Shown: positions 297-50,911, counted from the first letter of the stretch. The stretch is DNA of 64,000 nt from an uncultured archaeon (GCA_964551375.1 CAZKBG010000001.1:42833-106832), one strand, 5' to 3'. Notes: a model not told the origin generated them from the sequence alone. Numbers and translations: made by a program.

Positions 297-1364
297 TTGA
301 TTTTCATGGGGTCAGCAAAGTATTTTTCAATGCTAATTTTTTCTATTTTTATTTTAGGAGTTGCTCTTGCGGCTCCAGGGATACCACACCAGTTTTATGG
401 ATTTGTGACAATCAACGGAGCGCCGGCAAATGGAGCGTTAATAGTTGCAAAAATAAATAACGTTGAAGTTTCAAGAACCCTGAGCTCAAACGGAAATTAC
501 GGGTACAATCCAAATATTTTCTATGTTCCAGACCCAAACAGCAACAACGCTGGAAAAAGAATTGACTTTTATTTAAGCGGAACGCTTGTAGCAAACAAAT
601 ACTTTGAAAGTGGAACAAGCACAAAACTTGATTTTAATTTAGGAATAGCTCCATTTTGCGGAGACACTAGCTGCAACGCAGGAGAAACATGCTCAACATG
701 CGCAACTGATTGCGGAGTATGCCCTTCAACAGGTGGCGGAGGGGGAGGCGGCGGTGGCGGAGGAGCTCCAGTAGCCCAAAGCATTAATGTTCAAGTAACA
801 GGAAACTGCCTTGGAAAACCAATAGTATTGAAAGCAACAGCAGGAACAACAGCACTTGGCTCAGCAACAGTAAGCGTAAAACACAACAACAATACTTCCC
901 AAACAACAACAGATGCAAATGGCGGAATAACATTCACATTCAATGAACTTGGAAAATACGAGTTCACAGTAACAAAGAACTCCTATAGCCCTGCAACAAA
1001 ACAAGTTGATGTATTAAACTGCACAGGGGAAACAACAAACACAGGGACTGGAAGCGGCGCAGGTGCTGATTTATGCTCAAACAAAAACTGCAACGACTTA
1101 AACCCATGCACTGATGATTCATGCGCGCTAGGCGTATGCAACTATGCATTCAAATCAGATGGAACAACATGCGGAACAGAACTAACATGCCAGAAAGGAG
1201 AATGCGTTGCAAAAATTGTGGAACCAGTTAACACAGCTACTGGGGCAGGGGCTGCAACAGGATTATTCGCACTTGGAACAGATACTGCTATGCCAATAGT
1301 TCTTGTAATAGTAATAATTGCCATATTTGCAATACTATTGCTATTAAGCAGAAGAAAAAAGTGA
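297..1364 (+). CDS. secreted Cys-rich cell-surface protein with N-terminal signal peptide, Gly11 linker and C-terminal TM anchor with basic tail
   Basis: N-term MLIFSIFILGVALAAPG hydrophobic; many Cys (CGDTSCNAGETCSTCATDCGVCP); C-term MPIVLVIVIIAIFAILLLLSRRKK resembles archaeal C-terminal anchor/sorting signals; the ATG at 306 may be the true start. Confidence 0.6.
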   Translation: MIFMGSAKYFSMLIFSIFILGVALAAPGIPHQFYGFVTINGAPANGALIVAKINNVEVSRTLSSNGNYGYNPNIFYVPDPNSNNAGKRIDFYLSGTLVANKYFESGTSTKLDFNLGIAPFCGDTSCNAGETCSTCATDCGVCPSTGGGGGGGGGGGAPVAQSINVQVTGNCLGKPIVLKATAGTTALGSATVSVKHNNNTSQTTTDANGGITFTFNELGKYEFTVTKNSYSPATKQVDVLNCTGETTNTGTGSGAGADLCSNKNCNDLNPCTDDSCALGVCNYAFKSDGTTCGTELTCQKGECVAKIVEPVNTATGAGAATGLFALGTDTAMPIVLVIVIIAIFAILLLLSRRKK

Positions 1365-1437
1365 AAATTAGTTAAATAAAAAAATGATTTGTTTGGCGGG
1401 CAAGAGCCTGCCAAAAATATTATTTTCCAAAGTAAAA

Positions 1438-1722
1438 TTACTTCTTCTTTTTTTTGTTCCCAAAAATCTTATCCCACTGACTTTGTTTAACCCCATGAAA
1501 TCCTACTGTAGTGCCTATATTTGATTCAGAAATCCTTGGGGTAATATATTTTAATTTTGGCTGGAGAACTTGCGCAGCCTTTGTATACGCTTGATGAGAA
1601 TCAGCAATCCTTCTCTGGCTTCCGGTTTCAACAATCATCGGACCGTGGCGCGTGCCGGTTTCCTTATTATGAAAAGTCATTACAAGTTTTCTTTTCGGAC
1701 CTTTAGGTTTCATAAAAATCAT
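1438..1722 (-). CDS. small basic hypothetical protein (94 aa), translationally coupled downstream of the giant adhesin gene
   Basis: Start lies 2 nt after the stop of ORF 1725..4439 on the same strand; Lys-rich C-terminus; no family recognised. Confidence 0.35.
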   Translation of the reverse strand: MIFMKPKGPKRKLVMTFHNKETGTRHGPMIVETGSQRRIADSHQAYTKAAQVLQPKLKYITPRISESNIGTTVGFHGVKQSQWDKIFGNKKKKK

Positions 1723-1724
1723 CT

Positions 1725-3953
1725 TTAAACAAGTGGAACTATTTGAAGCCCTGCGATTTGAGAATACCCGCCTATTGAAGGAACATCAATCACAACAGTG
1801 TCGCTTCCTCCAACAGAAATATTAGAAAATACACTATACTGCTCTCCTTCCATCCATCTTGCAAGAGTGGCTGAGTGAGTTCCGGCATTTGTTTTAGTTC
1901 CTTGGCTTATGCCTCCAACAGAAAGAGTGTATTGGCAGGAAGTAGCATCCCAAGGGCTGCAATAAAGCACAAAGTTGTAATCATTTGCGCTAAGCCCGGT
2001 TAGGGTAATGCTTGAAGCCGCGCCTGAGCGATAAATATAGCCGTTAAACATTGCATCATTTAGATTTGTGCTTCCACCCCACCCTCCGCCAAATCCTCCA
2101 AGCGTCATTGAAACCCCTGTAACATTTCCATTAGCATCAAGAACATTTGGAGAGCTCATGCTTGATGAAGTCAAGTTCCAATAGTAGGTGTTTCCATCAT
2201 TATACATTCCGCTTCCAGAATATGATGAGGGGCTGTAATCAAAATTAATCGCTCGTTTTCTTCTTGCATCCTGCGATGGGGTTTGCGCGGTTAAATTATT
2301 TGAAGTAATTATCTGCAGTCCTGACATGTTTTGCCCTATTGTAATTTTAATAGGGTCATTATAATCCGACACATGAATGTTGTTAATTGTAGTGTACTGC
2401 TCTCCCGCCATCCACCTTGACAAAAACTTTGCATGCCCATTTCCGGCAGATTTTGAGCCGTAATTCACAAGGTCAGTTGCAATTGTAAAGTTGTTCACAG
2501 TTGCGTCATCAGGAACGCCGTACAATACTAAATTGTAATCCCCTGCGGGAAGTCCAATTATTTTGACTAAACTTCCGTTGTAAATATATCCGTTAAACAT
2601 TGAGTCATTCACTCCGCTTGTCCCTCCCCAGTTTCCAGCCATGTTTGAAATTACCGCAATCCCTTCTGTGGAATTATTATTCCCGTCCTTAATTGTGGAT
2701 GATGTGGTGGTTCCGTTTGCAAGAGGATTCCATTTGTAAGTATTCCCATCGTTGAATTTTCCATTTCCAGTGTAAGAACCGTCCCCTCCGCAGTCAAAGT
2801 GAAGAGACTGCTTTAGATATGGATTTTGTTCAGAAGGAAGAGCTGTGACAAGGGAAGATCCGTTTACTGGAATAATCTGCCATCCTGAAATATTTGAGCT
2901 TACATTCACCTTAATTGGATCGTTATAATCCGAAACATGAACATTGCTGAATGTGTGATATTGTTCCCCCTCAACCCAGCTCGCAAGATTTCTATTGCTC
3001 CCTGAAGAAGTGCCTGCAGTTTTTGCACCATAGCTTGCAAGATCAGTTGAAACAGTGTGAGTATCAACTCCAGTAGGCGCAACATAAAGAACAAGATTGT
3101 AATCCCCTGCAGGAAGACCGATTATTTTTGCGAGATTTCCTGTATAGCTGTAATTTTCAAACATTGAGTCATTAACTCCATTAGAAAGTCCCCAACCTCC
3201 AGTAAAGTTTGATGTAAAAGAAACTCCTGGGACTGCATTGTCATTTGCATCCTTTATTGAAGGCGAGTATAAGGTAGTGTTACCAACAGTATTCCATTTA
3301 TATGATTGGCCGTTGTTGAATTTTCCGCTCCCTGTGTAAAGACCACTCCCTGCAAAGTCAAAGAATATTCCATAAGAAATTGGATTAGCAAGAACAGTAA
3401 TTGTAATCAAAAAGTCGCTTGTGTTTGGGTTGCCAGCAGTGTCAATGCATCTGATATAAACATTATTACTTCCAGTCGCAAGCCCGCTAATAGTTGCCGA
3501 GTGGGAAGTCACTGAATCAGTAAAACTATTGGTCATGCTTGCATATGCGACTCCTGTAGAAGTTGAATATCTGCAAGCCGCATTTTCATCCGTGGTGATT
3601 GTGAGTCCGTAAGTTGTAGTTCCAAACGCAAGCGCGCTGGGGTTTGAGCCTGATATAACCGGAGGGGTGGCATCAGCGCCAACTGTAATAGTTACAAGCG
3701 TGTCGTCTGAGATAGAGCTGTTTGAAACACTTTGACATTTAATATAAATATTATTGGCTCCAGTTACTAACGAACCCACAGTTGCTGAGTGGGTTAATTC
3801 ACTTCCTGAAAAACTATTAGCTTGGCTGGAAAAAGCAACTCCACTAGAAGAATCATACTTACAATTAGCATTAACATCAGTGTTAATATCAAGAGCATAA
3901 CTTGCTGTTCCATAAGCAAGGGTGGCTGGGTTTGATGCGCTGATTATTGGAGG
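1725..3953 (-). repeat. intragenic tandem protein-domain repeats (3 x ~185 aa at ~1725-3407; 2 x ~90 aa at ~3404-3953)
   Basis: Repeated blocks are visible in the translated ORF (GKFN(D/N)G(N/Q)(T/S)YKWN..., NDSMFNGYIY...GLPAGDYNLVLY...). Confidence 0.6.
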
Positions 3954-19028: not shown

Positions 19029-19670
19029 TTATTTTTCAAGAACTGAAAATGCATGTTTCCATATATTCTGCCTTGCGCCATATCTTACCCAAAGAACAAC
19101 AAGCGCTTCAAGCCAATAGGACTCATTAATTTCGCCTAAATCAATTATTTTTTCCCAGCCTAATTTTTTTGCAATTTCAATAACTTGTTTTTTTGCATCC
19201 TCGTCATTTCCGCAGATGAAAAAATCAGGCGTTCCTGCTTCCATTTTTGGATTAATCATGGTGTCTGCGTTAATGGTGTTAAATGCTTTGACCACTCTTG
19301 ATTTTGGGAGCCACTCCTGCACCATTGCTCCGCCTGATTTTTGGGGAGTTGAGAGAATTCCAGGCAAATCTCCTTTTGAAAAATCAAGTGGGTTAGTGAC
19401 ATCAATGACAATTTTGTTTTCAAAATTTTCTTTTCCTGCAAGATTAATCGCATTCTTTAGCCCAGTCCACTTGGCTGCGAGGACTATTATTTCTCCAAAT
19501 TTTGCCGCGTCAGAAAAGCTTCCTATTGAGGCTTGTTTTCCCTTTCCCTTAAACCATGCGTTTAACTTGATAGGGTTTCTTGTCCCAATTTTGATTTCAT
19601 GCCCGAGGTTCAAAAAACCTTCAGCAAGGCTTGTTCCAACAATTCCGGAGCCAAGAATTCCAATTTTCAT
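19029..19670 (-). CDS. NAD(P)-binding oxidoreductase, F420_oxidored/COG2085-like dinucleotide-binding family
   Basis: MKIGILGSGIVGTSLAEGF Rossmann GxGxxG start; ~213 aa. Confidence 0.55.
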   Translation of the reverse strand: MKIGILGSGIVGTSLAEGFLNLGHEIKIGTRNPIKLNAWFKGKGKQASIGSFSDAAKFGEIIVLAAKWTGLKNAINLAGKENFENKIVIDVTNPLDFSKGDLPGILSTPQKSGGAMVQEWLPKSRVVKAFNTINADTMINPKMEAGTPDFFICGNDEDAKKQVIEIAKKLGWEKIIDLGEINESYWLEALVVLWVRYGARQNIWKHAFSVLEK

Positions 19671-19794: not shown

Positions 19795-20589
19795 CTAAAT
19801 GCTTTCTTTTATTGCAAAAGTAACTCTTTCCCTTCCGCGAGTTTTTGCCCTGCTGCAAAGCCTATCAGCAGTGACTTCAGCTCTTTCAATAGAATCTCCT
19901 CGTTTCATCCCAACAATTCCCGCGCTGTAATTAAACCTCAATCCTTCCTTTCTTGCTTTTGGATACATTTTCCAGCTCTTTAATTCTTCCTGCCTTGCTC
20001 TCTCAAATTCAGTTGCAAGAAGCGCTTTTGCCGCTCTTGGAGGCATTGGGAGGTATGCTAAAAATTCATCTCCGCCTATGTGTCCGGCAAATCCTCTGGC
20101 TTTAGGAACTACTTTTGCAAGTGAATCAGCAAAGGCGGTTAAGAATCCAAGCCCTCCTTCCTTTCTTCCAAAAAGTGTATTTACTCTTTTGAGTTCATCA
20201 ATGTCAATATAAACAAGCGAGTGATATCCTTCAGATTGAGTGGATTTTAAAAGCTTTGAAAAGAAAAATTCTCTATTAAGCAAGCGGGGAAACTCTTTGT
20301 CCCGTGAAGTAAGTTTTGCTTCCTGGAGAAGATAGTGCTGGGTAAGCCCGTGTCTTTTTGCCCTAAAACTCTTAATTACTTTTATCTGCTCCGCGATTTT
20401 TTCCTTAGGAAAATTTTTTTGAAGCATTAATTCAAGCGTCCTAAATTCTCTTAACAGGCCCTTGTTTCCAATATCCTGCAATCTCATTAATCCTCTAATT
20501 AGTCTTGGTCCATTAGTTATTTTTACTCTCTTCCCCCTCATTTTGTAAAGCGGTTTTTTTATTCCTGTGCTCTGCGGATTTTGATGCAT
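19795..20589 (-). CDS. GGDEF-domain protein (diguanylate cyclase-like) with ~130-aa uncharacterised N-terminal domain
   Basis: SLVYIDIDELKRVNTLFGRKEGGLGFLTAFADSL...ARGFAGHIGGDEFLAYLP...NYSAGIVGM...RLCSRAKTRGRERVTF matches GGDEF blocks including the exact GGDEF. Confidence 0.7.
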   Translation of the reverse strand: MHQNPQSTGIKKPLYKMRGKRVKITNGPRLIRGLMRLQDIGNKGLLREFRTLELMLQKNFPKEKIAEQIKVIKSFRAKRHGLTQHYLLQEAKLTSRDKEFPRLLNREFFFSKLLKSTQSEGYHSLVYIDIDELKRVNTLFGRKEGGLGFLTAFADSLAKVVPKARGFAGHIGGDEFLAYLPMPPRAAKALLATEFERARQEELKSWKMYPKARKEGLRFNYSAGIVGMKRGDSIERAEVTADRLCSRAKTRGRERVTFAIKESI

Positions 20590-20622
20590 AATAAACTTTT
20601 AGGCATACTTTGTATTTAACAC

Positions 20623-21138
20623 TTACTCGATGTAACTTTGTTTTGAATAAGGGCAGCACTCATCAAATTCATCTTTTTCCTTGCTTTCCTGTTGCGTGGG
20701 GTTGTCACAGCGCCCTGACTTTAAGTATTCTTCAAAAACCTCATGCAAGTTCTTAATCAAATTATGTTCTTTGTATTCCTTTGGATTAATCCACTCAAAC
20801 TTATCGTGGTCCTTGCTTAGTTTCACTTCGCTTGTTTTTGATTTGCACTTAAAAAAAATTCTCACAATTTGAAGCTGTTCTCCTTTTACAACAGGATAAG
20901 CTTCATTAACAAAAAACGCATTTCCTACTTCAATTTGGTTATGTTTAAGTCCAGTCTCTTCTTCTATTTCTCTAAGCAAATTTTCCTGAATTGTTTTGCC
21001 CGCCTCAATTCTTCCGCCAACAACATCAAAAAATCCTTCTTGAGTTCCATCAGCATACTTTTTAGACTCGCGCAGAACAAGCACCCTGCCCTCATGCTCA
21101 ATGAATGCTTTGGCAGCAACAAATAGTTTTGTTTCCAT
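20623..21138 (-). CDS. NUDIX hydrolase
   Basis: Nudix box GGRIEAGKTIQENLLREIEEETGL (Gx5Ex7REUxEExGU). Confidence 0.75.
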   Translation of the reverse strand: METKLFVAAKAFIEHEGRVLVLRESKKYADGTQEGFFDVVGGRIEAGKTIQENLLREIEEETGLKHNQIEVGNAFFVNEAYPVVKGEQLQIVRIFFKCKSKTSEVKLSKDHDKFEWINPKEYKEHNLIKNLHEVFEEYLKSGRCDNPTQQESKEKDEFDECCPYSKQSYIE

Positions 21139-21247
21139 TTAGATTATCTTGGATTTTGAAGTATAATTAATTTTGCTTTATTGTTCCTTAATTTGTTTTA
21201 TTGTCCCTTAAACTTGAACTAATAACAATTAAATATGTGGAAGAAGT

Positions 21248-21679
21248 TTGATAGTTTGGACTGGGATAATTTTGGATTTAATAAAACAGCTAAATGATGA
21301 GCACAAAGAAATTCTGTACCTGCTATCTTCGCTTGAATCAGCTGCAAAAACAGGGGTTGTGGAACAGCACACTTTTCTTAATCAAATCACTGAATTAAAA
21401 GAACTTTTAGTAAATCATCTTGCGGTTGAAGATAATTTGTTGTATTCAAAAATCAGGCAAAGTAAATCAGCAAAAGATCGTGAAACAGGGGAAGCTTTTT
21501 CTAAAGAAATGGGCAAAATTGCTGAGAAGGCAATGAAGTTCTTTAATACGTATGATAAGATGCCGGTTTCTTCTCTCCTTAAAAACAAAAAATTTATTTC
21601 GGATTTTGAAGAAATCACTTCAGCAGTGAGAAAAAGAGTTGCAGTTGAAGAAAGTGTTTTATTTAAGCTGTATAATTAA
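21248..21679 (+). CDS. hemerythrin-like (HHE cation-binding) domain protein
   Basis: LNDEHKEI...LVNHLAVEDNLLY resembles hemerythrin H..E / H..ED motifs; ~140 aa helical. Confidence 0.45.
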   Translation: MIVWTGIILDLIKQLNDEHKEILYLLSSLESAAKTGVVEQHTFLNQITELKELLVNHLAVEDNLLYSKIRQSKSAKDRETGEAFSKEMGKIAEKAMKFFNTYDKMPVSSLLKNKKFISDFEEITSAVRKRVAVEESVLFKLYN

Positions 21680-22031: not shown

Positions 22032-22730
22032 ATGCAAAACAAGCCTGTGCGAAAAAACTCTTTTTCAAAGCCAAAAGTGGACAAAACAGACCCTGCAAGA
22101 TTTAGGCGAACAACAAGATTAACTTGGCATTTAATGGAAGCCTCAAGAAAGCTTGGAAGAGGCCCTCCAAACGTAAAAGCAAAAAAAGTCGCTGAACTGG
22201 TTCTTGAAAAAATTCCAACTGATTTAAACATTATTCACTCTGAAAAAAACCGCCTTTTTAGAAGAAGCGCGCATAATGCTCTGCTTTATAAAAAGCCAAT
22301 CGGACCAATGCAATGCGCAGAGAGGTGCAATTTAGCAATTGCTCTTCTTAACGCATCAGGAGTAAAATCCTGGCTTGCGCGCGTAATTTATTTAGAAAGA
22401 AAAACAAAAACTTGGCATTTTCATGATTACGCAGAATTTGTTTCCGGAGAACGCGTTTACACACTGGTTTTTGGAACAAAGCCTGACGGAAGAGGGGATT
22501 ATACAATAATACCTGACGCGGTCGAACAAGTTTTTAAAGGCTCAAATCCGGTGGTGTTTAGGGCAACTGATTCAAAGCAAATAGGCGGGGTTGACAGCTG
22601 GGCAACTTACAAAGCATATTCAAGAAAGCTTAACCAGAGCTTTACAAAAGAAATGGTAAAAAATAGAAGAAGATTGGACCTGTTAATTAGAGAAGGAATA
22701 ATTCCTCAAGAAGCCCTTTGGCATATTTAA
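22032..22730 (+). CDS. transglutaminase-like cysteine peptidase superfamily protein (cytoplasmic), paralog 1
   Basis: QCAERCNLAIALLNASGVKSWLARVIY...WHFHDYAEF...D fits the Transglut_core pattern Cys...ALL.A.G(I/V)(P/K)AR.V...H.W.E.Y...D; no signal peptide; TATA (ctatatat) ~30 nt upstream. Confidence 0.6.
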   Translation: MQNKPVRKNSFSKPKVDKTDPARFRRTTRLTWHLMEASRKLGRGPPNVKAKKVAELVLEKIPTDLNIIHSEKNRLFRRSAHNALLYKKPIGPMQCAERCNLAIALLNASGVKSWLARVIYLERKTKTWHFHDYAEFVSGERVYTLVFGTKPDGRGDYTIIPDAVEQVFKGSNPVVFRATDSKQIGGVDSWATYKAYSRKLNQSFTKEMVKNRRRLDLLIREGIIPQEALWHI

Positions 22731-23578: not shown

Positions 23579-23675
23579 AATTACTCTTCTTCTTTGATAT
23601 ATTTAACATATGAGGTTATGCCCAAGATTATAGCATATGTTAATTTTATATTTAGGAAAGTTCTATTTTCTGTGT

Positions 23676-25577
23676 ATGCAAAATAAGGATCAGAAAGGAC
23701 AGGGTACTATTGAGTACTTGGTTATTATTGCAGTAGTGATTGTGATAGCGTTAGTGGTAGTTGGCTTGCTCACAGGGCTTTTTGGTGACCTTGGATTGAG
23801 CTCAATTTTTGTTACTCCTGAAATTAAAGGACAAATCGGCTCAGGCGGGGTTAGCGTAGTTGATGCTGCTTCAGACCTTGATGGAAAAATACTTTTAGTA
23901 CTGCAAAATGACTCAAGCGATTCTTTTGAAATTACCGACATTAATTCAGGCGGTGGAAAATCTTCCTACCTTCCGACAAATTTAATTTTAGGGGACGAAA
24001 GGAGATTTTTGCTTGATGCTTCAAATCTTGAATGCATATGCTCCGCGGGAGAAACCCGCAGGATTTGCGAATTTACTGTGACGCTTACTTCAGCCGCGGG
24101 GCTTATAAAACAGGAGCAAATAAAAACTACCGTTGACTGCATTTCGCAGATAGTTGACAATCCAACAATAATTCACCCTTCAACTGTTGGTTTAATGTCT
24201 TTATCATGGGCGCGGGCGTCGCATGATATTAATCCGCCAATTGCAAATATGGAAAGCGCCGGAGAGCAAGTTGGAATTGATTCAAGTGGAAATGTATTTG
24301 TTTATGGATACGCGCATAGGGAATATACTGACATAAATTTTGGAGATGTGTATCTAAGCGCTTCCCCAAGCGAAGGAAGGTATGCATTTTTGGCAAAATA
24401 TAACCCGACAGGAACTGTTTTGTGGGCAATTGGAATTCCAAATGCTTGGTCCGGAGCATACCCTCAGCCGCTTGCAGTTGATTCCAGCGGAAATGTGTAT
24501 ATCACTGGAAATACAGACAGCAACATAGATTTGGGCGGGGGAGTAATTTATTATTCAAATGACTGGCGTGATTTTTTCATTGCAAAAATAGCGTCAAATG
24601 GAACTCCATTATGGATTAGGGGAGCTGGCGCAAATTCAGCTAATAGCGAAGGATTTACTGTGGGGCTTGATTTAAGCGGAAATCCAATGCTTGCGGGGTT
24701 ATTTGGCGGAGATTTAAATATTGACAATCACATCCTGACTGATTTAGGCGACGCGATGGTTTTTGTTGTGAAATATGATTCAGACGGAAATTATCTTTTG
24801 AGCCACACAAGCAGAATAAACGGCGCGATGAATATAAAAAATGGAATCGTTGACTCAAGTGGAAATTCATATTTCACAGGAGTTCAGCAGGCTGATGTAA
24901 ACTTTGGCGGAAATGTAACAATTGCTTCAAATGGTAACCAAAATTATTATGCAGTAAAATATGATTCAAATGGAAATCCGCTTTGGGCAAAAACAAGCTA
25001 TTCAAGAAACACCGATCTTAGAAGCATTGCAATTGACACTTTGGGAAACGTGCTTTTTACAGGATATTATTCAGGAGGATTTTTTGGAAATCCTGATTTA
25101 AATATCGGCGAAACAGTGCTTCACGGAACCAGCGCTGACAATTTATTTGTTCTTAAATATTCTTCTGCAGGGAGCCTTGTTTGGGCAAAAGTATCTGACA
25201 TTTTAGGAGCTTCAACAGTTTTATTCCCTGGGGGAATGGTTTCGGATTCAGAGAACAATGTATACATTGCAGGGCAGTATAGAAGCGGGGATGCAAATTT
25301 CGGCTCAATTTATTTTCCAACACCAATTCTTTCAACATTTAATTTCTTTGTCTTAAAATATTCTTCATTAGGAGTTCCAATTTGGGGAGATTATGCAAAA
25401 AGCTCTCAGGCGCTAATGTCGATATATTTGAATTCAATAAGTGCAAGCTCAAACGGAAGCATAGCAACAATAGGTGAGTTTAATACAATTGACATTAATT
25501 TTGGAAGTTATATCCTTCCAGCTTTGTATGACAGAAACACGAGTTTTTTTGTGGTGAAATACGCGCAGGCACAGTAA
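23676..25577 (+). CDS. pilin-like secreted protein: class III signal peptide fused to SBBP-type beta-propeller repeats
   Basis: MQNKDQKGQ|GTIEYLVIIAVVIVIALVVVGLL; repeats DSSGN(V/S)Y(I/F)TG ... (F/Y)(V/A)(V/L)KYDS(D/N)GN(Y/P)LW typical of SBBP beta-propeller repeats; TATA ttttatattt 22-31 nt upstream (leaderless); list ORF starts at 23637 but ATG 23676 is more likely. Confidence 0.65.
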   Translation: MQNKDQKGQGTIEYLVIIAVVIVIALVVVGLLTGLFGDLGLSSIFVTPEIKGQIGSGGVSVVDAASDLDGKILLVLQNDSSDSFEITDINSGGGKSSYLPTNLILGDERRFLLDASNLECICSAGETRRICEFTVTLTSAAGLIKQEQIKTTVDCISQIVDNPTIIHPSTVGLMSLSWARASHDINPPIANMESAGEQVGIDSSGNVFVYGYAHREYTDINFGDVYLSASPSEGRYAFLAKYNPTGTVLWAIGIPNAWSGAYPQPLAVDSSGNVYITGNTDSNIDLGGGVIYYSNDWRDFFIAKIASNGTPLWIRGAGANSANSEGFTVGLDLSGNPMLAGLFGGDLNIDNHILTDLGDAMVFVVKYDSDGNYLLSHTSRINGAMNIKNGIVDSSGNSYFTGVQQADVNFGGNVTIASNGNQNYYAVKYDSNGNPLWAKTSYSRNTDLRSIAIDTLGNVLFTGYYSGGFFGNPDLNIGETVLHGTSADNLFVLKYSSAGSLVWAKVSDILGASTVLFPGGMVSDSENNVYIAGQYRSGDANFGSIYFPTPILSTFNFFVLKYSSLGVPIWGDYAKSSQALMSIYLNSISASSNGSIATIGEFNTIDINFGSYILPALYDRNTSFFVVKYAQAQ

Positions 25578-26504: not shown

Positions 26505-27329
26505 TTGGATAAGCTTTTTAACAACCCTTGCATCAAGTTGTTTATGAGCGCAGGAAAAAAAATGAGGGTGTTTAGAAAACTCGCCGCGCACGATGCCAAG
26601 ATTTATGATGCACTACTCCCAAAACGCTCCTCAATTGCTCCTCACTTTAACAATACTCCAGTTGCTTCTTCAAAACATGTAAAAGTCGCAAAAACAGATC
26701 CTGCAAGATTTAGGCGAACAACAAGAGCAAATCATTTAGTTCATGAATTTGCCGCGCAGGTTAAAGGAGATAGTTTTCAAAAAGCAGAACAAATTGCAAA
26801 AAAAGTTCTTGAACAGATCCCAGGCTCTGATACAATTAAGGTAATTGAAAAGCGCAGAATATTCGCCCGCGGAGCAGGAATAGCGATGGCAGAAAAAAAA
26901 CCAATAGGGCCTTTTCACTGCGTTGAAAGATGCAATTTAGCACTTGCTCTATTAAACGCATCAGGGGTAAAATCCTGGCTTGCAAGAGTGATTGTATTTA
27001 ACCGCAAAATAAAGAAAGTTGAATTTCACGACTATGTTGAATTTTCAGCAGGCGGAGGAGTCTGCACATTAATGTTCACAAATCACAAAGGCACAGACAA
27101 AAACTTTGTTGTTCTTGAAGGCCCAGTTGAGTTATCAGTTCATTCCGTTGGGAATATGACACTTAGAGCTCTTGATTCAAAACAAATAGGCGGAACAGGA
27201 AACTGGAATGAGTATAAAAGATTTGAACGAAGAATTAGCGGCATGGGATTTTATAGGGAAATTAAAAAAAACGAGCGCAGAATTGAACTGCTTCAAAAAG
27301 AAGGATTAATGCCTCATAGATTATACTAA
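26505..27329 (+). CDS. transglutaminase-like cysteine peptidase superfamily protein, paralog 2
   Basis: Shares TDPARFRRTTR, KKPIGP(F/M)(H/Q)C(V/A)ERCNLA(L/I)ALLNASGVKSWLARVI, FHDY(V/A)EF and DSKQIGG with ORF 22032. Confidence 0.6.
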   Translation: MDKLFNNPCIKLFMSAGKKMRVFRKLAAHDAKIYDALLPKRSSIAPHFNNTPVASSKHVKVAKTDPARFRRTTRANHLVHEFAAQVKGDSFQKAEQIAKKVLEQIPGSDTIKVIEKRRIFARGAGIAMAEKKPIGPFHCVERCNLALALLNASGVKSWLARVIVFNRKIKKVEFHDYVEFSAGGGVCTLMFTNHKGTDKNFVVLEGPVELSVHSVGNMTLRALDSKQIGGTGNWNEYKRFERRISGMGFYREIKKNERRIELLQKEGLMPHRLY

Positions 27330-31778: not shown

Positions 31779-32345
31779 TTATTTATTTTTATAATGCGCT
31801 TCAATATCCCAAGAGCTCCAAGCAAGGCACTCTTTGTCACTAAATCCCAATTTTTTTGCCAATTGATGAACCGCTTTAATGCTTGGCCCCTCAATTTCCA
31901 AAAAACACGGCACAAATCTGTGCTTTCCAAGGTACTTTTCAATTTCAACATGACTTTTTCCTAACTTCCAGCTGGTTCTGTTCTTATCCATGCCGCCGAT
32001 TTTCACAAGCCCAAGCGCAGTGAAGATTTTTTGCATATCTTCAAAGCTTCCAATTTCAAATTCAGTTTCTTCAGCAGTTTTTGCTTTTGCGCTCTTGTGC
32101 TTTTGATGTTTATGAGTAAGAACGCACTGCACTTTGCCCTTAGTGTCAGTCATTTTTCTTAATCTTAGTATTTGCTTGTTTTTCTTTAATCTCCTGTCAG
32201 GGTAATCCATAATAATTGCTTCAATTTTTCCTTCAAATGCTTTTTTAGCCCCAAGTTTTGCAAGCCTAGCCTCAACTTTTTTTTTATTAATCTCAATTAT
32301 CTTAACTTCAATCTCTTTCATAATCTCACATTCATTTCCATTCAA
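31779..32345 (-). CDS. CYTH-domain protein (triphosphate tunnel metalloenzyme family)
   Basis: N-terminal EIEVKIIEI and C-terminal EIE acidic triads; size ~180 aa; the start may be the internal Met (MKEIEVK) at 32321. Confidence 0.55.
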   Translation of the reverse strand: MNGNECEIMKEIEVKIIEINKKKVEARLAKLGAKKAFEGKIEAIIMDYPDRRLKKNKQILRLRKMTDTKGKVQCVLTHKHQKHKSAKAKTAEETEFEIGSFEDMQKIFTALGLVKIGGMDKNRTSWKLGKSHVEIEKYLGKHRFVPCFLEIEGPSIKAVHQLAKKLGFSDKECLAWSSWDIEAHYKNK

Positions 32346-46249: not shown

Positions 46250-49200
46250 ATGAGTCAGGCAAGACAGATTTTTTTGCATTCCTTAATAACAGGAATAATG
46301 CTTCTGTCGCTAATTTTAGCAAACCCCGGCTTTGCATATGCTGTTGAGTCAAGCGCAGGCGTTTTTAGTTTTGCTGCCCCTGCAGTAACTCCAAATACAA
46401 CAGGGGGAATAGTTCTTCCAGCCTCAACAAGCGCAGGCACTGGCAGTACAAGCACTGGCGGCAGTACAAGCGGAATAGTCCTTCCAGGCGGAAGCGGCAG
46501 CGGTTCCACAGTAATTCCAAATTCTGTTCCTGCAGGAACATGCTCTGTTTCTCAATTAAAACCCTCCGAAGTGAAAGGAATACTTGACTTAACTCACGAA
46601 GGATTCAACGGAAAAACAATATCCGATAAAAAAATAGGGGATTCAAATGATTCAAACAAAAACGGAGTAAAAGACTTAGGAGATATGAGCGCAATTGGAA
46701 AAGATATTTCAGGAAAACAAGCTGTAAAAGTTGATTTGCCAACAATAGCCGCTCCCGCAAACAGATTTGCTTTCTTTGACGGCTCAAGAATTACAGGCCC
46801 ATTTGGAATAGGATTAATTTTAGATGATACTTTAAGAGTGGGAAGATGCGATTATCCTGCTCAGGAACAGGCGCTTTGCAAAATAAACGGCTCCGGGCTT
46901 CAAGTGCGAACAAGCGGAGTAGGATTCACTTCAGATATTACAAACGCGTTTAATTCGCTGAAAAACACCGGGAAAAATCTTGCTGAAAACGCTCTTTCCC
47001 CAGATGATTACAACAAGATGCGCGGAAATTACCTTGACATTAACAGCAATGATTTCACAACAGGCTCGTTTGGAACAGGCGCTCAATTAAAAAATTCCAT
47101 TCTTACCCAGCAGTATAATGCAAGAAACGCAACAACCTGCAATAACAGCTCATGCGTAATAAGCACTTACTCTGCATTTGACAAATACTTTAATTCATGG
47201 CTAACAACTGACATGGTTGTTTCAAACATTGGTCCAACTTTGCTTCACAAAGGGTACAAATTATTTACAAAAGGAGCAAAGTCATTTGGTGACGGATCGC
47301 TTGCAGGTCCATGGAACCAAGTAATGAAAGCAAAAAGAATGGTTTCTCCAAGCGAGATATTCGGGAAACAAAGATACGCAAAGTATAATGCCTTGATTAA
47401 GGAAGAAGGATTTGGAAAAATATTTGAACCTCTAACTATACAAGGAAAGTTATTTAGCTCAGGCGCGGCCGGAGAAATAGATAAATTAGTTGCAAAAGAC
47501 TCTCCAATTTGGAAACTTGACTCTGAGCAAAGAAAAAAATTCTTTGAGGCAGTGGAGCATTTGAGAGCTTATTCAATAGCAAATTCCGAGGCAATGTCTG
47601 CTGCAGAAGCGGCATTTAAGGCACAATCAGACGCAGCAAGCTTAATTGCAAATCCAGCAGCAAGAGCGCTTGCTGAAAAAAATGCGAAAATATCTTGGGG
47701 GCAAGATGTTTCAAGAGTATTCAACGATTGGGATGACACAGTATTTTTGGATTCGCCAGCATGGCTTGCAAAGAATGAAGATTTGCTTTCTCTTGGCGGA
47801 TACGCGATGAAAAGAAACGGGCCTCCAGGGGCATGGCCTGATGGGCAGGGATATATTGATGTTTCAACAAGCGGTTCATTTAATTTCAAAGAAGCATTGA
47901 AAAAATTCAGAGATGAAGGCGGTTGGTCAGGCTGGGCGAACAGCACCGACGCAAAGTCATTTGCAGCAAATGCTGACGGGAGCTTAAAACTTTATAAAAT
48001 AAGCGAAGAAGGAACTGCGATTGCACAAAACGTTGGACTGCAGGACTTGAAATTTCATTTATCTAAATCAGGCTCAGGAACTTACAGCGTAAAACTTCCT
48101 GACGGAAGACTAATTCCTTTGAATGATGCTTCAATTGACATGATTGCGGGAAACCCTGCACTCCCAGGGCATGTAACGATATTCAAATCAACTTATGTTG
48201 AAGCAACTCCTCTTACTCCAGAAGACTTTGCAAACAGAGTAACACACTCAAGAATAACAGGAAGGCCAAACACAGCAGTAAGAAATATGGATGACTTGCA
48301 CAATGCTCTCCTTCAGAATGATTTTGCCCCAAGAAGATTCACAAGCGCACTTGATGAACAGTTTGCAAAAGAAGGGGATATGATAAAAAAATATTACAAA
48401 GACCCAACAGTTGGGATTTACAAAGGGACAATTCTTCCTGTATTTTACTGGAATGCAAAAAGAGGATTTGGGCAGGAACAATTCTCCGCATTTATGCTTC
48501 CTGATACATGGACAACTCTTACCGTATCTCAGGGAACAGACAAGATATACAAAGATTCCTATATTGACTTTTACGCAAATGAAGGCTCGGATCAGGGAGA
48601 CATGTTCAAAAGAGCATTCAACAGCTTAGCATTTGTTTGGACAAAAGCGTTGGATCTTGCTGCAGAAACTAACACTTTCCTAAAAGATGGGATTTCAAAA
48701 GTGAGCGGCGGATTCTTTGAAGGAAGCGCGACAAGAGACATAGTTGGGGATTTGGCATTCTACTCTCATAACGAATCATGCGCAGGATGCACAGGAAATA
48801 TTAATTTCAAAAACAATTATTTCACACTTAATGGATTTAATTCAGGAATAGCAATGCAGGCATTTTTGCTTGAAGCAAAAACTCCTGAAGAAAAAGCAAA
48901 AGAAGGAAGCTTGATTGTTTCATATACACACCACTCAAACTTGAACGGAAAAAGCACTCAAATTGAGGGCGGCTCAATTGATATTGCAAAAGCAAGAATC
49001 AGCGGAGAAACATGCGACCAGAAACTAAGAAAAATGGGCTTAGGATGGGCAGGTTCAGGAGCAGGCGGAGTACTGGCACTTGCAGAAAATTTAGGATATG
49101 TAGTTGGATTTGGGCCAGGGCTTGTTGCAAGCTTAGTTCAGCAGATGTACTTTGGAAGAGAATTACAAGATTGTGTTGATGATGTTGAAGGGTATTACAC

Positions 49201-50911
49201 TCACTTCTACGCTCCTCCTGCAAAAGACGCAAGCAAGAATAAGACAAAAGAAATGCTTTCAAATGAAAATGTTACAGGCGCACTATCTGACATGAGCACA
49301 AAGCTTGACGAGTTTGTAAAAGAAACACAAGCAAATCAAAAAACAACAACCGCAAAAACTCCGACAAACCCAGTTGAAAAATCAATGGACAGCTTGAGCA
49401 CTCAATTCAAAGACTTCGCAGAAAAAGCAAAGCAGACAAACATACTTCAGGCAACAGTAGAACTTCTTCCTCCATCAAGCGGAACATTATCAGGAAAAGA
49501 TGTATTTTACATTTGGTTTAAAGAAACACTAATGCCTTCAGGGTACCGCTCAACAGGAAAAATGATTATTTCAGACGGCAATAACTCAGTTGAAGCAAAC
49601 TTTGCAGAAGGCACTTTGAAAGTGAATGGAAAAGAAGTGATTGGAAAAGACAGTGCAGATCACACAAGACTGCTAACTCAAGACAACAGAATCCCTGCAG
49701 AAGTAGTTCCAATGACACTAAATAGAATCGCGGCTCCAATGAACGAAGGAACTGTATTTGAAATGAATTCATACGGCGAAGTAAAAATTCTTAACTCTGA
49801 TGTATTAAACTGCTTCCAAAAAGCAGTAAGAGACCAGACAGGAATAACTTACAGCGGAAGCGAAGTAACACAAGTAATGGGAAATCTCCAGGCAATAAGC
49901 ACAGACATGTACGGCTCTGTTTTCGCAAGAGATACTAAGATTTTCCTTGAGGGAACTGCAGCAAGAATGCAGGGAAGCTCATACTCTAAGTTTATAATAA
50001 ACGGATTTTGGAATACAAAATTAGTTGACGGCAACGGCTCGCTTGATTCAGGAAAATTCGTTGGAATGAACTTTGCAAACGGAACAATAGTTCTAAAGCC
50101 AGAAACAAATGAACTTGTTATTTGGATAAGACAGCACAAAGACGCAATATTAACAAGCAAGGACGTAAAAGATTTGAAAGCTACTCCCACAACAGTAAAA
50201 GATCCTGCGACAGATTGTGACACTCCCGCAATTGACCTTGAAGCAGTGCCATTTGCTAATGATGAACTTGGAGCTCAAAAAGTAGGCAACTTCAACACTT
50301 CAATGAATCACCTTGGTCCATTCACTCAATTCACAACCGACAAAAGAATTTATGAATTTTATTCAAAAAGAGACGGAAATAACGGAGACTGCAAGAATTA
50401 CTTTAGAGTAAGAGACAAAGACACTGGAAAAATATTGACAGACCAGGAAATAGTCGGACCAATAACTCAAGATGCTGACGGCACAATAAAATTCAGGACA
50501 GCAGACGGCAAACAGCAGTCCTTAAAGTTTGACGCAGAAAACGGGGTTCCAAAAGTTTCATACAATGGAGGAGCTCCAGAAACACTACTTTCAGCGCAGG
50601 GACCAAAAGGCTCATTCTGGTACGATCCAAATACAGGGCAGTGGTACCCAGAGAACGGACTGCAGATTCCTCTAAATCAAGCTTTCAAAGATAACGGTGC
50701 TTGGTTTGAGCCTGACAAAAATGGAAATGTTGTTGGTACACCTGAAAATAAAATGACATTTAACATCGGACAGGGAAAGGACTCAAGCTTTAACTTGCCA
50801 TCAATGCCAGAAACAGCGGCAGGAATAGCAGTATTCATGATGTTATTCTTATTAGTAGCATTCATGACAACACAGGGTAGATACAAAAGAAAAAGAAAAG
50901 ATTTACTTTAA
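46250..50911 (+). CDS. giant cell-surface protein (1553 aa) with signal peptide and C-terminal TM anchor
   Basis: Signal LITGIMLLSLILANPGFAYA; G/S/T-rich stalk; C-term AAGIAVFMMLFLLVAFMTTQGRYKRKRKDLL. Confidence 0.65.
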   Translation: MSQARQIFLHSLITGIMLLSLILANPGFAYAVESSAGVFSFAAPAVTPNTTGGIVLPASTSAGTGSTSTGGSTSGIVLPGGSGSGSTVIPNSVPAGTCSVSQLKPSEVKGILDLTHEGFNGKTISDKKIGDSNDSNKNGVKDLGDMSAIGKDISGKQAVKVDLPTIAAPANRFAFFDGSRITGPFGIGLILDDTLRVGRCDYPAQEQALCKINGSGLQVRTSGVGFTSDITNAFNSLKNTGKNLAENALSPDDYNKMRGNYLDINSNDFTTGSFGTGAQLKNSILTQQYNARNATTCNNSSCVISTYSAFDKYFNSWLTTDMVVSNIGPTLLHKGYKLFTKGAKSFGDGSLAGPWNQVMKAKRMVSPSEIFGKQRYAKYNALIKEEGFGKIFEPLTIQGKLFSSGAAGEIDKLVAKDSPIWKLDSEQRKKFFEAVEHLRAYSIANSEAMSAAEAAFKAQSDAASLIANPAARALAEKNAKISWGQDVSRVFNDWDDTVFLDSPAWLAKNEDLLSLGGYAMKRNGPPGAWPDGQGYIDVSTSGSFNFKEALKKFRDEGGWSGWANSTDAKSFAANADGSLKLYKISEEGTAIAQNVGLQDLKFHLSKSGSGTYSVKLPDGRLIPLNDASIDMIAGNPALPGHVTIFKSTYVEATPLTPEDFANRVTHSRITGRPNTAVRNMDDLHNALLQNDFAPRRFTSALDEQFAKEGDMIKKYYKDPTVGIYKGTILPVFYWNAKRGFGQEQFSAFMLPDTWTTLTVSQGTDKIYKDSYIDFYANEGSDQGDMFKRAFNSLAFVWTKALDLAAETNTFLKDGISKVSGGFFEGSATRDIVGDLAFYSHNESCAGCTGNINFKNNYFTLNGFNSGIAMQAFLLEAKTPEEKAKEGSLIVSYTHHSNLNGKSTQIEGGSIDIAKARISGETCDQKLRKMGLGWAGSGAGGVLALAENLGYVVGFGPGLVASLVQQMYFGRELQDCVDDVEGYYTHFYAPPAKDASKNKTKEMLSNENVTGALSDMSTKLDEFVKETQANQKTTTAKTPTNPVEKSMDSLSTQFKDFAEKAKQTNILQATVELLPPSSGTLSGKDVFYIWFKETLMPSGYRSTGKMIISDGNNSVEANFAEGTLKVNGKEVIGKDSADHTRLLTQDNRIPAEVVPMTLNRIAAPMNEGTVFEMNSYGEVKILNSDVLNCFQKAVRDQTGITYSGSEVTQVMGNLQAISTDMYGSVFARDTKIFLEGTAARMQGSSYSKFIINGFWNTKLVDGNGSLDSGKFVGMNFANGTIVLKPETNELVIWIRQHKDAILTSKDVKDLKATPTTVKDPATDCDTPAIDLEAVPFANDELGAQKVGNFNTSMNHLGPFTQFTTDKRIYEFYSKRDGNNGDCKNYFRVRDKDTGKILTDQEIVGPITQDADGTIKFRTADGKQQSLKFDAENGVPKVSYNGGAPETLLSAQGPKGSFWYDPNTGQWYPENGLQIPLNQAFKDNGAWFEPDKNGNVVGTPENKMTFNIGQGKDSSFNLPSMPETAAGIAVFMMLFLLVAFMTTQGRYKRKRKDLL

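Follow-up and report, generated by a model that had tools for sequence, protein, structure and literature searches.

A stretch of 64,000 nucleotides from the genome of an uncultured archaeon (GCA_964551375.1, CAZKBG010000001.1:42833-106832; hereafter the window, with positions counted from its first letter) carries a gene whose product is best explained, judging from its sequence, as a small, soluble, sensor-less predicted nucleotide cyclase of the GGDEF family with a complete catalytic core. We are confident that this gene is a native archaeal member of a divergent GGDEF subfamily, in which the aspartate that specifies guanine in diguanylate cyclases has been lost from every member compared. 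The explanation we favour, which we regard as evenly balanced between right and wrong, is that the gene would encode a vertically inherited dinucleotide cyclase of DPANN archaea, of the Iainarchaeota/Diapherotrites type, with a non-canonical base specificity.

Signalling by cyclic di-GMP (c-di-GMP) is treated in the literature as almost absent from archaea or unconfirmed there (PMC5847659, PMC8646023, PMC10086821), in line with an earlier note on this DNA that had called it essentially undocumented in these organisms. A census found essentially no GGDEF genes in complete archaeal genomes, and suspected contamination behind the hits in metagenome-assembled genomes (MAGs) (PMC5847659), and a 2022 review considered GGDEF genes in archaeal contigs as still to be confirmed (PMC10086821). 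Tests of two model archaea did not detect c-di-GMP, and more than 300 BLAST matches to GGDEF in Asgard and DPANN MAGs were noted without analysis (PMC8646023). Within the searchable literature we found no work on GGDEF proteins or c-di-GMP in Iainarchaeota/Diapherotrites, nor on GGDEF domains with the loop described below. GGDEF domains had thus been recorded in such archaea before; the apparent novelty lies in showing that an archaeal GGDEF gene is native, syntenic and constrained, in recognising a DPANN family of hairpin-GGDEF proteins with canonical and divergent subtypes, and in the fixed loss of the guanine-specifying Asp.

A GGDEF protein with a helical hairpin

The earlier note, made from the sequence alone, had seen an unmistakable GGDEF domain in this reading frame, and the Pfam search confirmed it: PF00990 matches residues 102-255 (E=3.1e-16, 60 bits, cut-off 23.8), TIGR00254 scores 49 bits (cut-off 37.4), and the motifs that had been quoted (DIDELKRVN, GHIGGDEF, SAGIVGM and AKTRGRERVTF) are all found in the protein. 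The AlphaFold2 model, computed from a family alignment of 15 sequences, has a mean predicted local distance difference test score of 90, and its top Foldseek matches in the PDB are PleD, WspR, SiaD and DgcB (probability 1.0). The protein has its fold in common with PleD, WspR and DgcZ/DosC (the Foldseek probability of 1.0 applying to PleD and WspR), and shares with cyclases of this type the active site (A-site) and the residues that bind the metal (Asp), contact the base (Asn) and bind phosphate (Lys/Arg).

The N-terminal extension, previously put at about 130 amino acids, is actually about 95 amino acids long and consists of a basic tail (residues 1-26, with seven Lys/Arg and no Asp/Glu) and an antiparallel helical hairpin with conserved positions L30, G33, L37, E48, L52, S74 and K78. 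The protein has no transmembrane segment. Its isoelectric point (pI) is 10.4, but the high pI and the basic tail were not taken as evidence of binding to nucleic acids, because the window proteome is basic overall, with a median pI of 8.9 and 16 of 64 proteins above 10.

A helical N-terminal element leading into the GGDEF domain is also found in SiaD (whose activator is SiaC), in Caulobacter DgcB and in the stalk of WspR. SiaD is among the best matches (NF038266, 9e-11; structure 7e6g, over ~255 columns). Unlike these stalk cyclases, the window protein has an intramolecular hairpin of ~68 residues following a basic tail, no SiaC-like partner is known for it, and the alignment to SiaD has a root-mean-square deviation of 19.9 Å, reflecting a different relative orientation. 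The palm domain of Cas10 and the GGDEF domain of GdpP (YybT) are more distant relatives, whose nucleotide is ATP and not GTP. Cas10 is matched weakly (Pfam PF22335, 0.0021; PADLOC, 2.5e-5), with scores far below that of the GGDEF match, the locus has no CRISPR-associated neighbours, and the GGDEF motif is intact in the window protein but not in GdpP.

A rare family with a canonical sister group

We refer to the divergent subfamily of the window protein as A1, and to the related hairpin-GGDEF proteins with a canonical pocket as A2; both labels are those of this analysis. A1 is rare, with ~20 sequences in all. Full-length matches to the window protein numbered 15 among 5.8 billion clustered proteins, while a profile search of 1.84 billion representatives returned 12 sequences at E<=1e-30, beyond which the matches grade into GGDEF proteins in general. 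Just a handful of further A1 loci came from 185,579 species genomes and the JGI metagenome contigs, the latter adding three, of which one duplicates locus L003. No A1 relatives were found in a scan of viral contigs, which gave no sign of a virus-borne origin, and a search with the hairpin only returned just the three closest sequences and no other fusions. The relatives that carry names are listed as 'Candidatus Iainarchaeum archaeon', 'Candidatus Diapherotrites archaeon', 'archaeon' and 'uncultured archaeon'.

The next-best matches are the A2 proteins, which are short (240-345 aa) and combine a basic tail and a hairpin with an RDPxF-type linker and, ahead of the A-site, a GFAG motif. They are similar to A1 in all these features, in length (for example, P0164) and in lacking an inhibitory site (I-site), but their pocket is fully canonical (GHxxGD ... 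GRxGGEEF): A2 keeps GHxxGD, the Arg before the motif and GGEEF, and A1 does not. To judge by these residues, the A2 proteins look like ordinary diguanylate cyclases and the A1 proteins do not.

Wherever their context is readable, A2 genes lie among archaeal housekeeping genes. P0164 is encoded on a 1,048,949-bp contig of Candidatus Iainarchaeum (CP064981.1), beside GatE, an ATP-dependent DNA ligase, diphthamide synthase and an archaeal prolyl-tRNA synthetase (ProRS), a neighbourhood which is syntenic in a second assembly. P0024 adjoins NMD3, an aCPSF-type beta-CASP nuclease and FtsZ, and P0062 adjoins GatD and a DNA ligase. We also observed a gene with a DAC (diadenylate cyclase) domain ~2 kb from a canonical-type hairpin-GGDEF gene, both on CP064981.1 (L022, 7173-7904) and on the syntenic contig (L023, 7179-7916); archaea of the Iainarchaeum type may encode both cyclic di-AMP (c-di-AMP) and GGDEF-type cyclases.

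Inheritance of the gene

Horizontal acquisition of the gene, as proposed in the earlier note, is not supported by its typical composition, by its synteny with orthologues of 42-51% identity or by its sister group of short, archaeal-type GGDEF proteins. The comparison of GC content and codon usage that had been suggested as a check gave no transfer signal: the gene has a GC content of 0.397 (window mean 0.380, sd 0.025) and a GC content at third codon positions (GC3) of 0.321 (window mean 0.320), its codon-bias distance B to the other window genes, 0.254, is among the lowest for its size, and there is no compositional step around the locus. The gene is under strong purifying selection, with a ratio of nonsynonymous to synonymous substitution rates (dN/dS) of 0.087 against the 82%-identical orthologue at locus L002, the lowest of four syntenic genes.

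Gene order has been kept over larger distances. Orthologues of 51% (L003) and 42% identity (L026/L027) adjoin a homologous gene for an SBBP pilin-like protein with a class III signal peptide, L003 keeps a 65%-identical XPD gene near its GGDEF gene, and L026/L027 have a 55%-identical F420_oxidored gene downstream of theirs; the pilin-like gene, XPD and F420_oxidored are all present in the window. The pilin-like gene is found beside the GGDEF gene in three lineages spanning 42-100% GGDEF identity (window, 23637-25577 (+); L003, 2524-4998; L026, 7816-9879), which may reflect no more than shared gene order, or else a functional tie to surface structures.

We built a neighbour-joining (NJ) tree of the catalytic domain from 98 sequences, 55 of which were other, mostly multidomain (presumed bacterial) GGDEF domains from the searches. 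A1 was monophyletic in 94/100 bootstraps and had short hairpin-GGDEF proteins as its sister in ~94/100 replicates; A2 was not monophyletic on the domain alone, and the tree does not resolve a single clade of archaeal hairpin-GGDEFs. Composition, dN/dS, synteny and tree together point to long vertical inheritance in an archaeal lineage, and run counter to both recent transfer and contamination.

The archaeal setting of the window, claimed from the start, is borne out by its gene content. Three large proteins carry class III signal peptides, and an HBB domain is found in a rad3/XPD helicase that passes the TIGR00604 cut-off with 260 bits. A FlaI-like ATPase adjoins two T2SSF genes, and the window further encodes a member of the geranylgeranyl reductase family and, likewise above cut-off, an Ogg N-glycosylase of the archaeal type. 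The PAC2 gene also listed in the earlier note could not be confirmed, as Pfam scans of 69 open reading frames (ORFs) of the window, covering all 64 of at least 80 aa and five shorter ones, gave no match to it. Bacterial GGDEF DNA mis-assembled or mis-binned into an archaeal contig, the concern that Galperin and colleagues raised for GGDEF hits in archaeal MAGs (PMC5847659), and one to which two family members from bins labelled Chloroflexi and Thaumarchaeota lend some colour, is here an extremely improbable explanation. On both sides the gene is flanked by archaeal-type genes, uniform in composition over the 64 kb; one 946,135-bp NCBI contig encodes proteins identical to the GGDEF, Nudix, hemerythrin-like, XPD and further products of the window, and the gene order is the same in an independent Logan assembly of run SRR12133403. 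Moreover, orthologues from other assemblies also have neighbours of archaeal kind (XPD and proteins with class III signal peptides), and, leaving aside the two from those bins (loci L005 and L007), the full-length relatives with a name or a judgeable context are all archaeal.

The base-recognition pocket

The A-site motif is intact in the window protein (G172-G173-D174-E175-F176), and GDEF is invariant across A1, four members having YGDEF. Further residues invariant in A1, at pairwise identities down to ~36%, are D129, D131, N137, S222-x-G224 and K249. D129 and D131 form the metal-binding DxD, with D129 corresponding to PleD D327, while the base-contacting N137 and the phosphate-binding K249 correspond to PleD N335 and K442, respectively. 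At the position of PleD R446 the window protein has R253, and most A1 members have Lys or Arg. The RxxD of the I-site, expected five residues before the A-site, is replaced in the window protein by K-A-R-G; it is absent from all A1 and A2 proteins, and the region is variable or gapped across A1. RxxD is common in diguanylate cyclases, though not obligatory.

It is in the recognition of the base that the protein departs from canonical cyclases. We tabulated the pocket residues of 340 GGDEF domains, 20 from A1 and 320 from outside the family, with the loop placed from HMMER alignments to SadC, RbdA and DosC. The canonical loop G-H-x-x-G-D becomes G-R-x-x-G-G-[L/F/M/H] in A1, one residue longer. 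The column of PleD D344 holds Gly in 20/20 A1 members and Asp in 308/320 other GGDEF domains with an intact motif; the conserved loop His is replaced by Arg (R142) in 19/20 A1 members and kept in 295/320 other domains; and the column of PleD R366, two residues before the motif, holds His (H170) in 20/20 A1 members and Arg in 314/320 others. None of the 20 A1 members has Asp, Ser or Thr at the D344 equivalent. In addition to these changes, the window protein differs from canonical cyclases in lacking the RxxD I-site and any sensor or receiver domain, and in its archaeal host. Within A1, a subgroup of four members (P0004/5/17/19) combines His at position 147 with a motif whose first Gly is replaced by Tyr (YGDEF); co-variation of this kind is what two positions lining the substrate pocket would be expected to show.

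Residues D327, N335 and D344 of PleD are described as indispensable for diguanylate cyclase activity, and a change of D344 to Ser alters specificity and underlies the Hypr enzymes, which make cyclic GMP-AMP (cGAMP) (PMC7288161). The Goldilocks model (eLife 2019) links base selection to the D344 residue and to the Asp or Glu of the GGDEF motif, and speculates that a shorter distance from base contact to metal could admit pyrimidines (PMC6456294). The window protein resembles Hypr enzymes (Geobacter GacA and Bd0367, products of which are 3',3'-cGAMP) in the replacement of the D344 equivalent, and it has GGDEF, not GGEEF, as the model requires for non-Asp variants (PMC6456294). However, the Hypr position is Ser or Thr, which still hydrogen-bonds the base, whereas A1 has Gly, Leu, Phe, Met or His together with an insertion. 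The combination that defines Hypr enzymes, Ser or Thr at the D344 position with GGDEF (PMC6456294), was not found in any A1 member, and the window protein lacks the receiver domain that Hypr enzymes have.

In the mechanism that we propose for the favoured, non-canonical cyclase, two chains would pair via their N-terminal hairpins to form a four-helix stalk, as in WspR, DgcB and SiaD, which would juxtapose two half-active sites. Each half-site would bind one nucleoside triphosphate (NTP) via D129, D174/E175, Mg2+ and K249/R253, and the paired NTPs would condense to a cyclic dinucleotide. The choice of base would fall to N137 and to the altered loop (R142, G145-G146, L147 and H170) instead of an Asp; because the Asp at the Watson-Crick face is gone, strict specificity for GTP is doubtful, and the product may be a different or a mixed cyclic dinucleotide. 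As the protein has neither a sensor domain nor an I-site, the level of its expression, or a partner bound to the hairpin, would determine its output. The alternative offered in the earlier note, a GGDEF protein with a non-canonical product, fits this analysis of the active site. Going further, it is possible, if doubtful, that the GRxEGG/GHIGGDEF subfamily is an archaeal invention that makes a messenger other than c-di-GMP. Such a messenger might be another purine cyclic dinucleotide or a mixed one, and one containing a pyrimidine is conceivable.

We consider it rather unlikely that the protein is an ordinary diguanylate cyclase, which would convert GTP to c-di-GMP despite the altered loop and give this archaeon c-di-GMP signalling of the bacterial kind, with receptors encoded elsewhere in the genome. 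Much of the protein would suit that role, as its GGDEF motif, metal Asp, base-contacting Asn and phosphate-binding Lys/Arg are intact, active cyclases are its top matches in both fold and sequence, some relatives are annotated publicly as 'diguanylate cyclase', sister proteins of related archaea have a canonical pocket, and R142 could in principle take over guanine recognition. However, the guanine-specifying Asp reported as essential is gone from the whole of A1 and kept in 96% of the compared domains, and two further changes are fixed, those of His to Arg and of Arg366 to His. Furthermore, genes for EAL, HD-GYP or PilZ proteins, which it had been proposed to look for, are absent from the Pfam scans of the window ORFs (64 kb of ~946 kb). 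An Rfam scan of the window found tRNA only and no riboswitch for c-di-GMP, cGAMP or c-di-AMP, and no MshEN-type c-di-GMP-binding motif could be seen by eye in the N-terminus of the FlaI-like ATPase.

A dead or re-purposed GGDEF domain, serving as an NTP-binding or NTP-hydrolysing module in the manner of GdpP/YybT or as a scaffold and making no cyclic dinucleotide, is in our view unlikely. It would account for the loss of a residue reported as essential, for the loss of the canonical Arg before GGDEF and for the absence of an I-site, a sensor domain or any known downstream component nearby, and the reference list of one paper (PMC8646023) points to a precedent in the GGDEF domain of GdpP/YybT, with its ATPase activity. 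Nevertheless, degenerate GGDEF domains usually lose the motif itself, whereas G173, D174, E175, F176, D129, N137 and K249 are invariant here at ~36-40% identity. Constraint on catalytic residues, in a gene with such a low dN/dS, is hard to explain without catalysis, and the way in which residue 147 co-varies with the first position of the motif hints at a substrate pocket that has been maintained.

Neighbouring genes

All three ORFs highlighted in the earlier note, for the GGDEF, Nudix and hemerythrin-like proteins, are found where that note had placed them (Table 1).

Table 1 Features of the GGDEF locus in the window.
Feature	Position	Strand	Basis
GGDEF-family protein gene, stand-alone, 264 aa, divergent A1 subfamily	19795..20589	(-)	Pfam, TIGR00254, AlphaFold2 fold, dN/dS
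Helical hairpin, residues 27-94 (helices 27-57 and 62-94); presumed dimerisation stalk	20308..20511	(-)	AlphaFold2 secondary structure
GGDEF (palm) catalytic domain, residues 97-258	19816..20301	(-)	Pfam and PDB profile alignments; invariant D129, D131, N137, K249, GGDEF
Remodelled base-recognition loop, residues 141-147, G-R-K-E-G-G-L	20149..20169	(-)	HMMER alignments and tabulation
A-site G-G-D-E-F, residues 172-176, with H170 ahead of the motif	20062..20076	(-)	Sequence, family alignment
Spacer from Nudix stop to GGDEF start, 33 nt	20590..20622	(-)	Sequence
Nudix hydrolase gene, 171 aa, MutT/NudI-like	20623..21138	(-)	PF00293, 8.4e-16
Hemerythrin-like four-helix protein gene, 143 aa, divergent from the Nudix gene	21248..21679	(+)	PF01814, 1.6e-11
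F420_oxidored/NpdG-like oxidoreductase gene, directly downstream of the GGDEF gene	19029..19670	(-)	PF03807, 3.4e-20
Pilin-like surface protein gene, class III signal peptide and SBBP beta-propeller repeats	23637..25577	(+)	Pfam SBBP, Class_IIIsignal

From this arrangement the earlier note had drawn the model of an imported three-gene module, in which the hemerythrin would sense O2 or NO, the GGDEF protein would signal and the Nudix enzyme would degrade the signal. We regard this model as very improbable, and as already largely refuted by synteny. The genes are indeed adjacent, with the Nudix and GGDEF genes co-directional across a gap of 33 nt (not 34, as first counted) and the hemerythrin-like gene divergent, and the same three genes are adjacent in L002. 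However, the adjacency is confined to this one close relative, where the spacer between the Nudix and GGDEF genes is 462 nt; neither the Nudix nor the hemerythrin-like gene adjoins the GGDEF gene in L003, L005, L006, L007, L024 or L026, at which the neighbours include tRNA-dihydrouridine synthase, MatE, GlmS, a HerA-like ATPase, GrpB, pterin dehydratase and others. The composition shows no sign of transfer either. A TATA-like TTAAATA lies in the spacer at -30 to -24 of the GGDEF ATG, and TATA-like boxes are present 24-32 nt upstream of the start codons of both the Nudix and the GGDEF genes, which in an AT-rich genome is a weak hint that the two genes may have separate promoters, and likewise a weak point against the module.

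The proteins themselves do not fit the roles assigned to them. The Nudix protein (PF00293, 58.6 bits) has the Nudix box G42x5K48x7R56E57IxE60E61xG63L, in which Lys in place of the first Glu is the only departure, and its best NCBIfam matches are NTP pyrophosphatases of the NudI/NudG/MutT type, all below cut-off. Nudix enzymes act on pyrophosphate bonds, and a cyclic dinucleotide contains no such bond; together with these matches, this chemistry leaves the proposed signal-degrading role without support. One further match, to the PADLOC candidate defence family PDC-S07 (1.4e-14), could be counted in favour of a module, but PADLOC found no known defence system at the locus, only the weak similarity to the Cas10 palm and this generic Nudix candidate family. 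The C-terminal 30 residues of the Nudix protein, outside the Nudix domain, are acidic and contain Cys.

The hemerythrin-like protein passes PF01814 (45 bits), but lacks most di-iron ligands. Compared with YtfE it keeps only H19, H57xxxE61 and E134, or about two His and two Glu of the di-iron set, with Lys and Arg at the positions of H160 and H204, and it shares only two His with its orthologue, which was found only in L002. With the ligands incomplete, a standard di-iron gas-sensing site is unlikely, and the proposal of an O2/NO sensor is unsupported. The TTG start of the gene may be too far upstream, judging from the orthologue. The protein also matches Rsd_AlgQ (6.9e-5); Rsd/AlgQ is a metal-free relative of the hemerythrin helical fold. 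The Nudix and hemerythrin-like genes are best explained, from their sequences and distribution, as lineage-specific neighbours rather than functional partners of the GGDEF gene.

Other genes of the window deserve mention. A CYTH-domain protein (31779-32345 (-), Pfam 5e-18) is encoded 11 kb from the GGDEF gene and is possibly a second nucleotide-signalling enzyme or a triphosphate-tunnel enzyme; against the class IV adenylate cyclase model TIGR00318 it scores 45.8 bits, below the cut-off of 57.95. Two paralogues of ~46-48% identity (22032-22730 (+) and 26505-27329 (+)), with a faint match to the transglutaminase core, flank the pilin-like gene and have a homologue also in L002. A 1553-aa ORF without a Pfam match (46250-50911 (+)) lies in a region of unusually high AT skew (up to +0.24).

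Weight and meaning of the finding

Several points weigh against a native cyclase with altered base specificity. Catalysis and product are predictions read from the sequence, and as D344 is reported to be essential (PMC7288161), its loss could mean that the protein is inactive. The identity of the D344 equivalent, G146 or L147, depends on where a one-residue gap is placed; a bacterial sequence with the same insertion keeps its Asp (GHTEGGD), which suggests that residue 147, Leu in the window protein, is the true structural equivalent, and in either alignment the window protein has no hydrogen-bonding side chain there. No cyclic-dinucleotide receptor, phosphodiesterase or riboswitch is found in the 64 kb of ~0.95 Mb. 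The NJ tree is saturated (distances >1) and does not resolve the deep relations between archaeal and bacterial GGDEF domains. Finally, two A1 loci are labelled 'Thaumarchaeota' (L005) and 'Chloroflexi bacterium' (L007), labels which are those of MAG bins from one study. Pfam scans of their neighbours found no domain-diagnostic genes and neither confirmed nor refuted the labels. An ABC-2 permease of L007 is 76% identical to one on the 'uncultured archaeon' contig L006, and the labels are probably the result of mis-binning. L007 also carries (862-3003 (-)) a tyrosine recombinase of the Phage_integrase family, into which an intein containing a LAGLIDADG domain is inserted.

For the question of whether archaea use GGDEF-based signalling, this locus, with 64 kb of archaeal genes on a contig of almost 1 Mb, provides a clean case. 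The predicted enzyme is small, at 264 aa, and easily expressed, and its loop differs from that of every characterised GGDEF protein. The locus thereby offers a direct test of how GGDEF proteins choose their nucleotides, and possibly the source of a new messenger.

DPANN-type organisms are thought to live attached to hosts. If the GRxEGG/GHIGGDEF subfamily does make a messenger other than c-di-GMP, then together with the canonical sister proteins this would point to one or two native GGDEF second-messenger systems at work in some DPANN archaea. Control of surface or pilus functions is one conceivable role for the signal in these presumably host-attached organisms, a link which only the recurrent pilin-like neighbour suggests.

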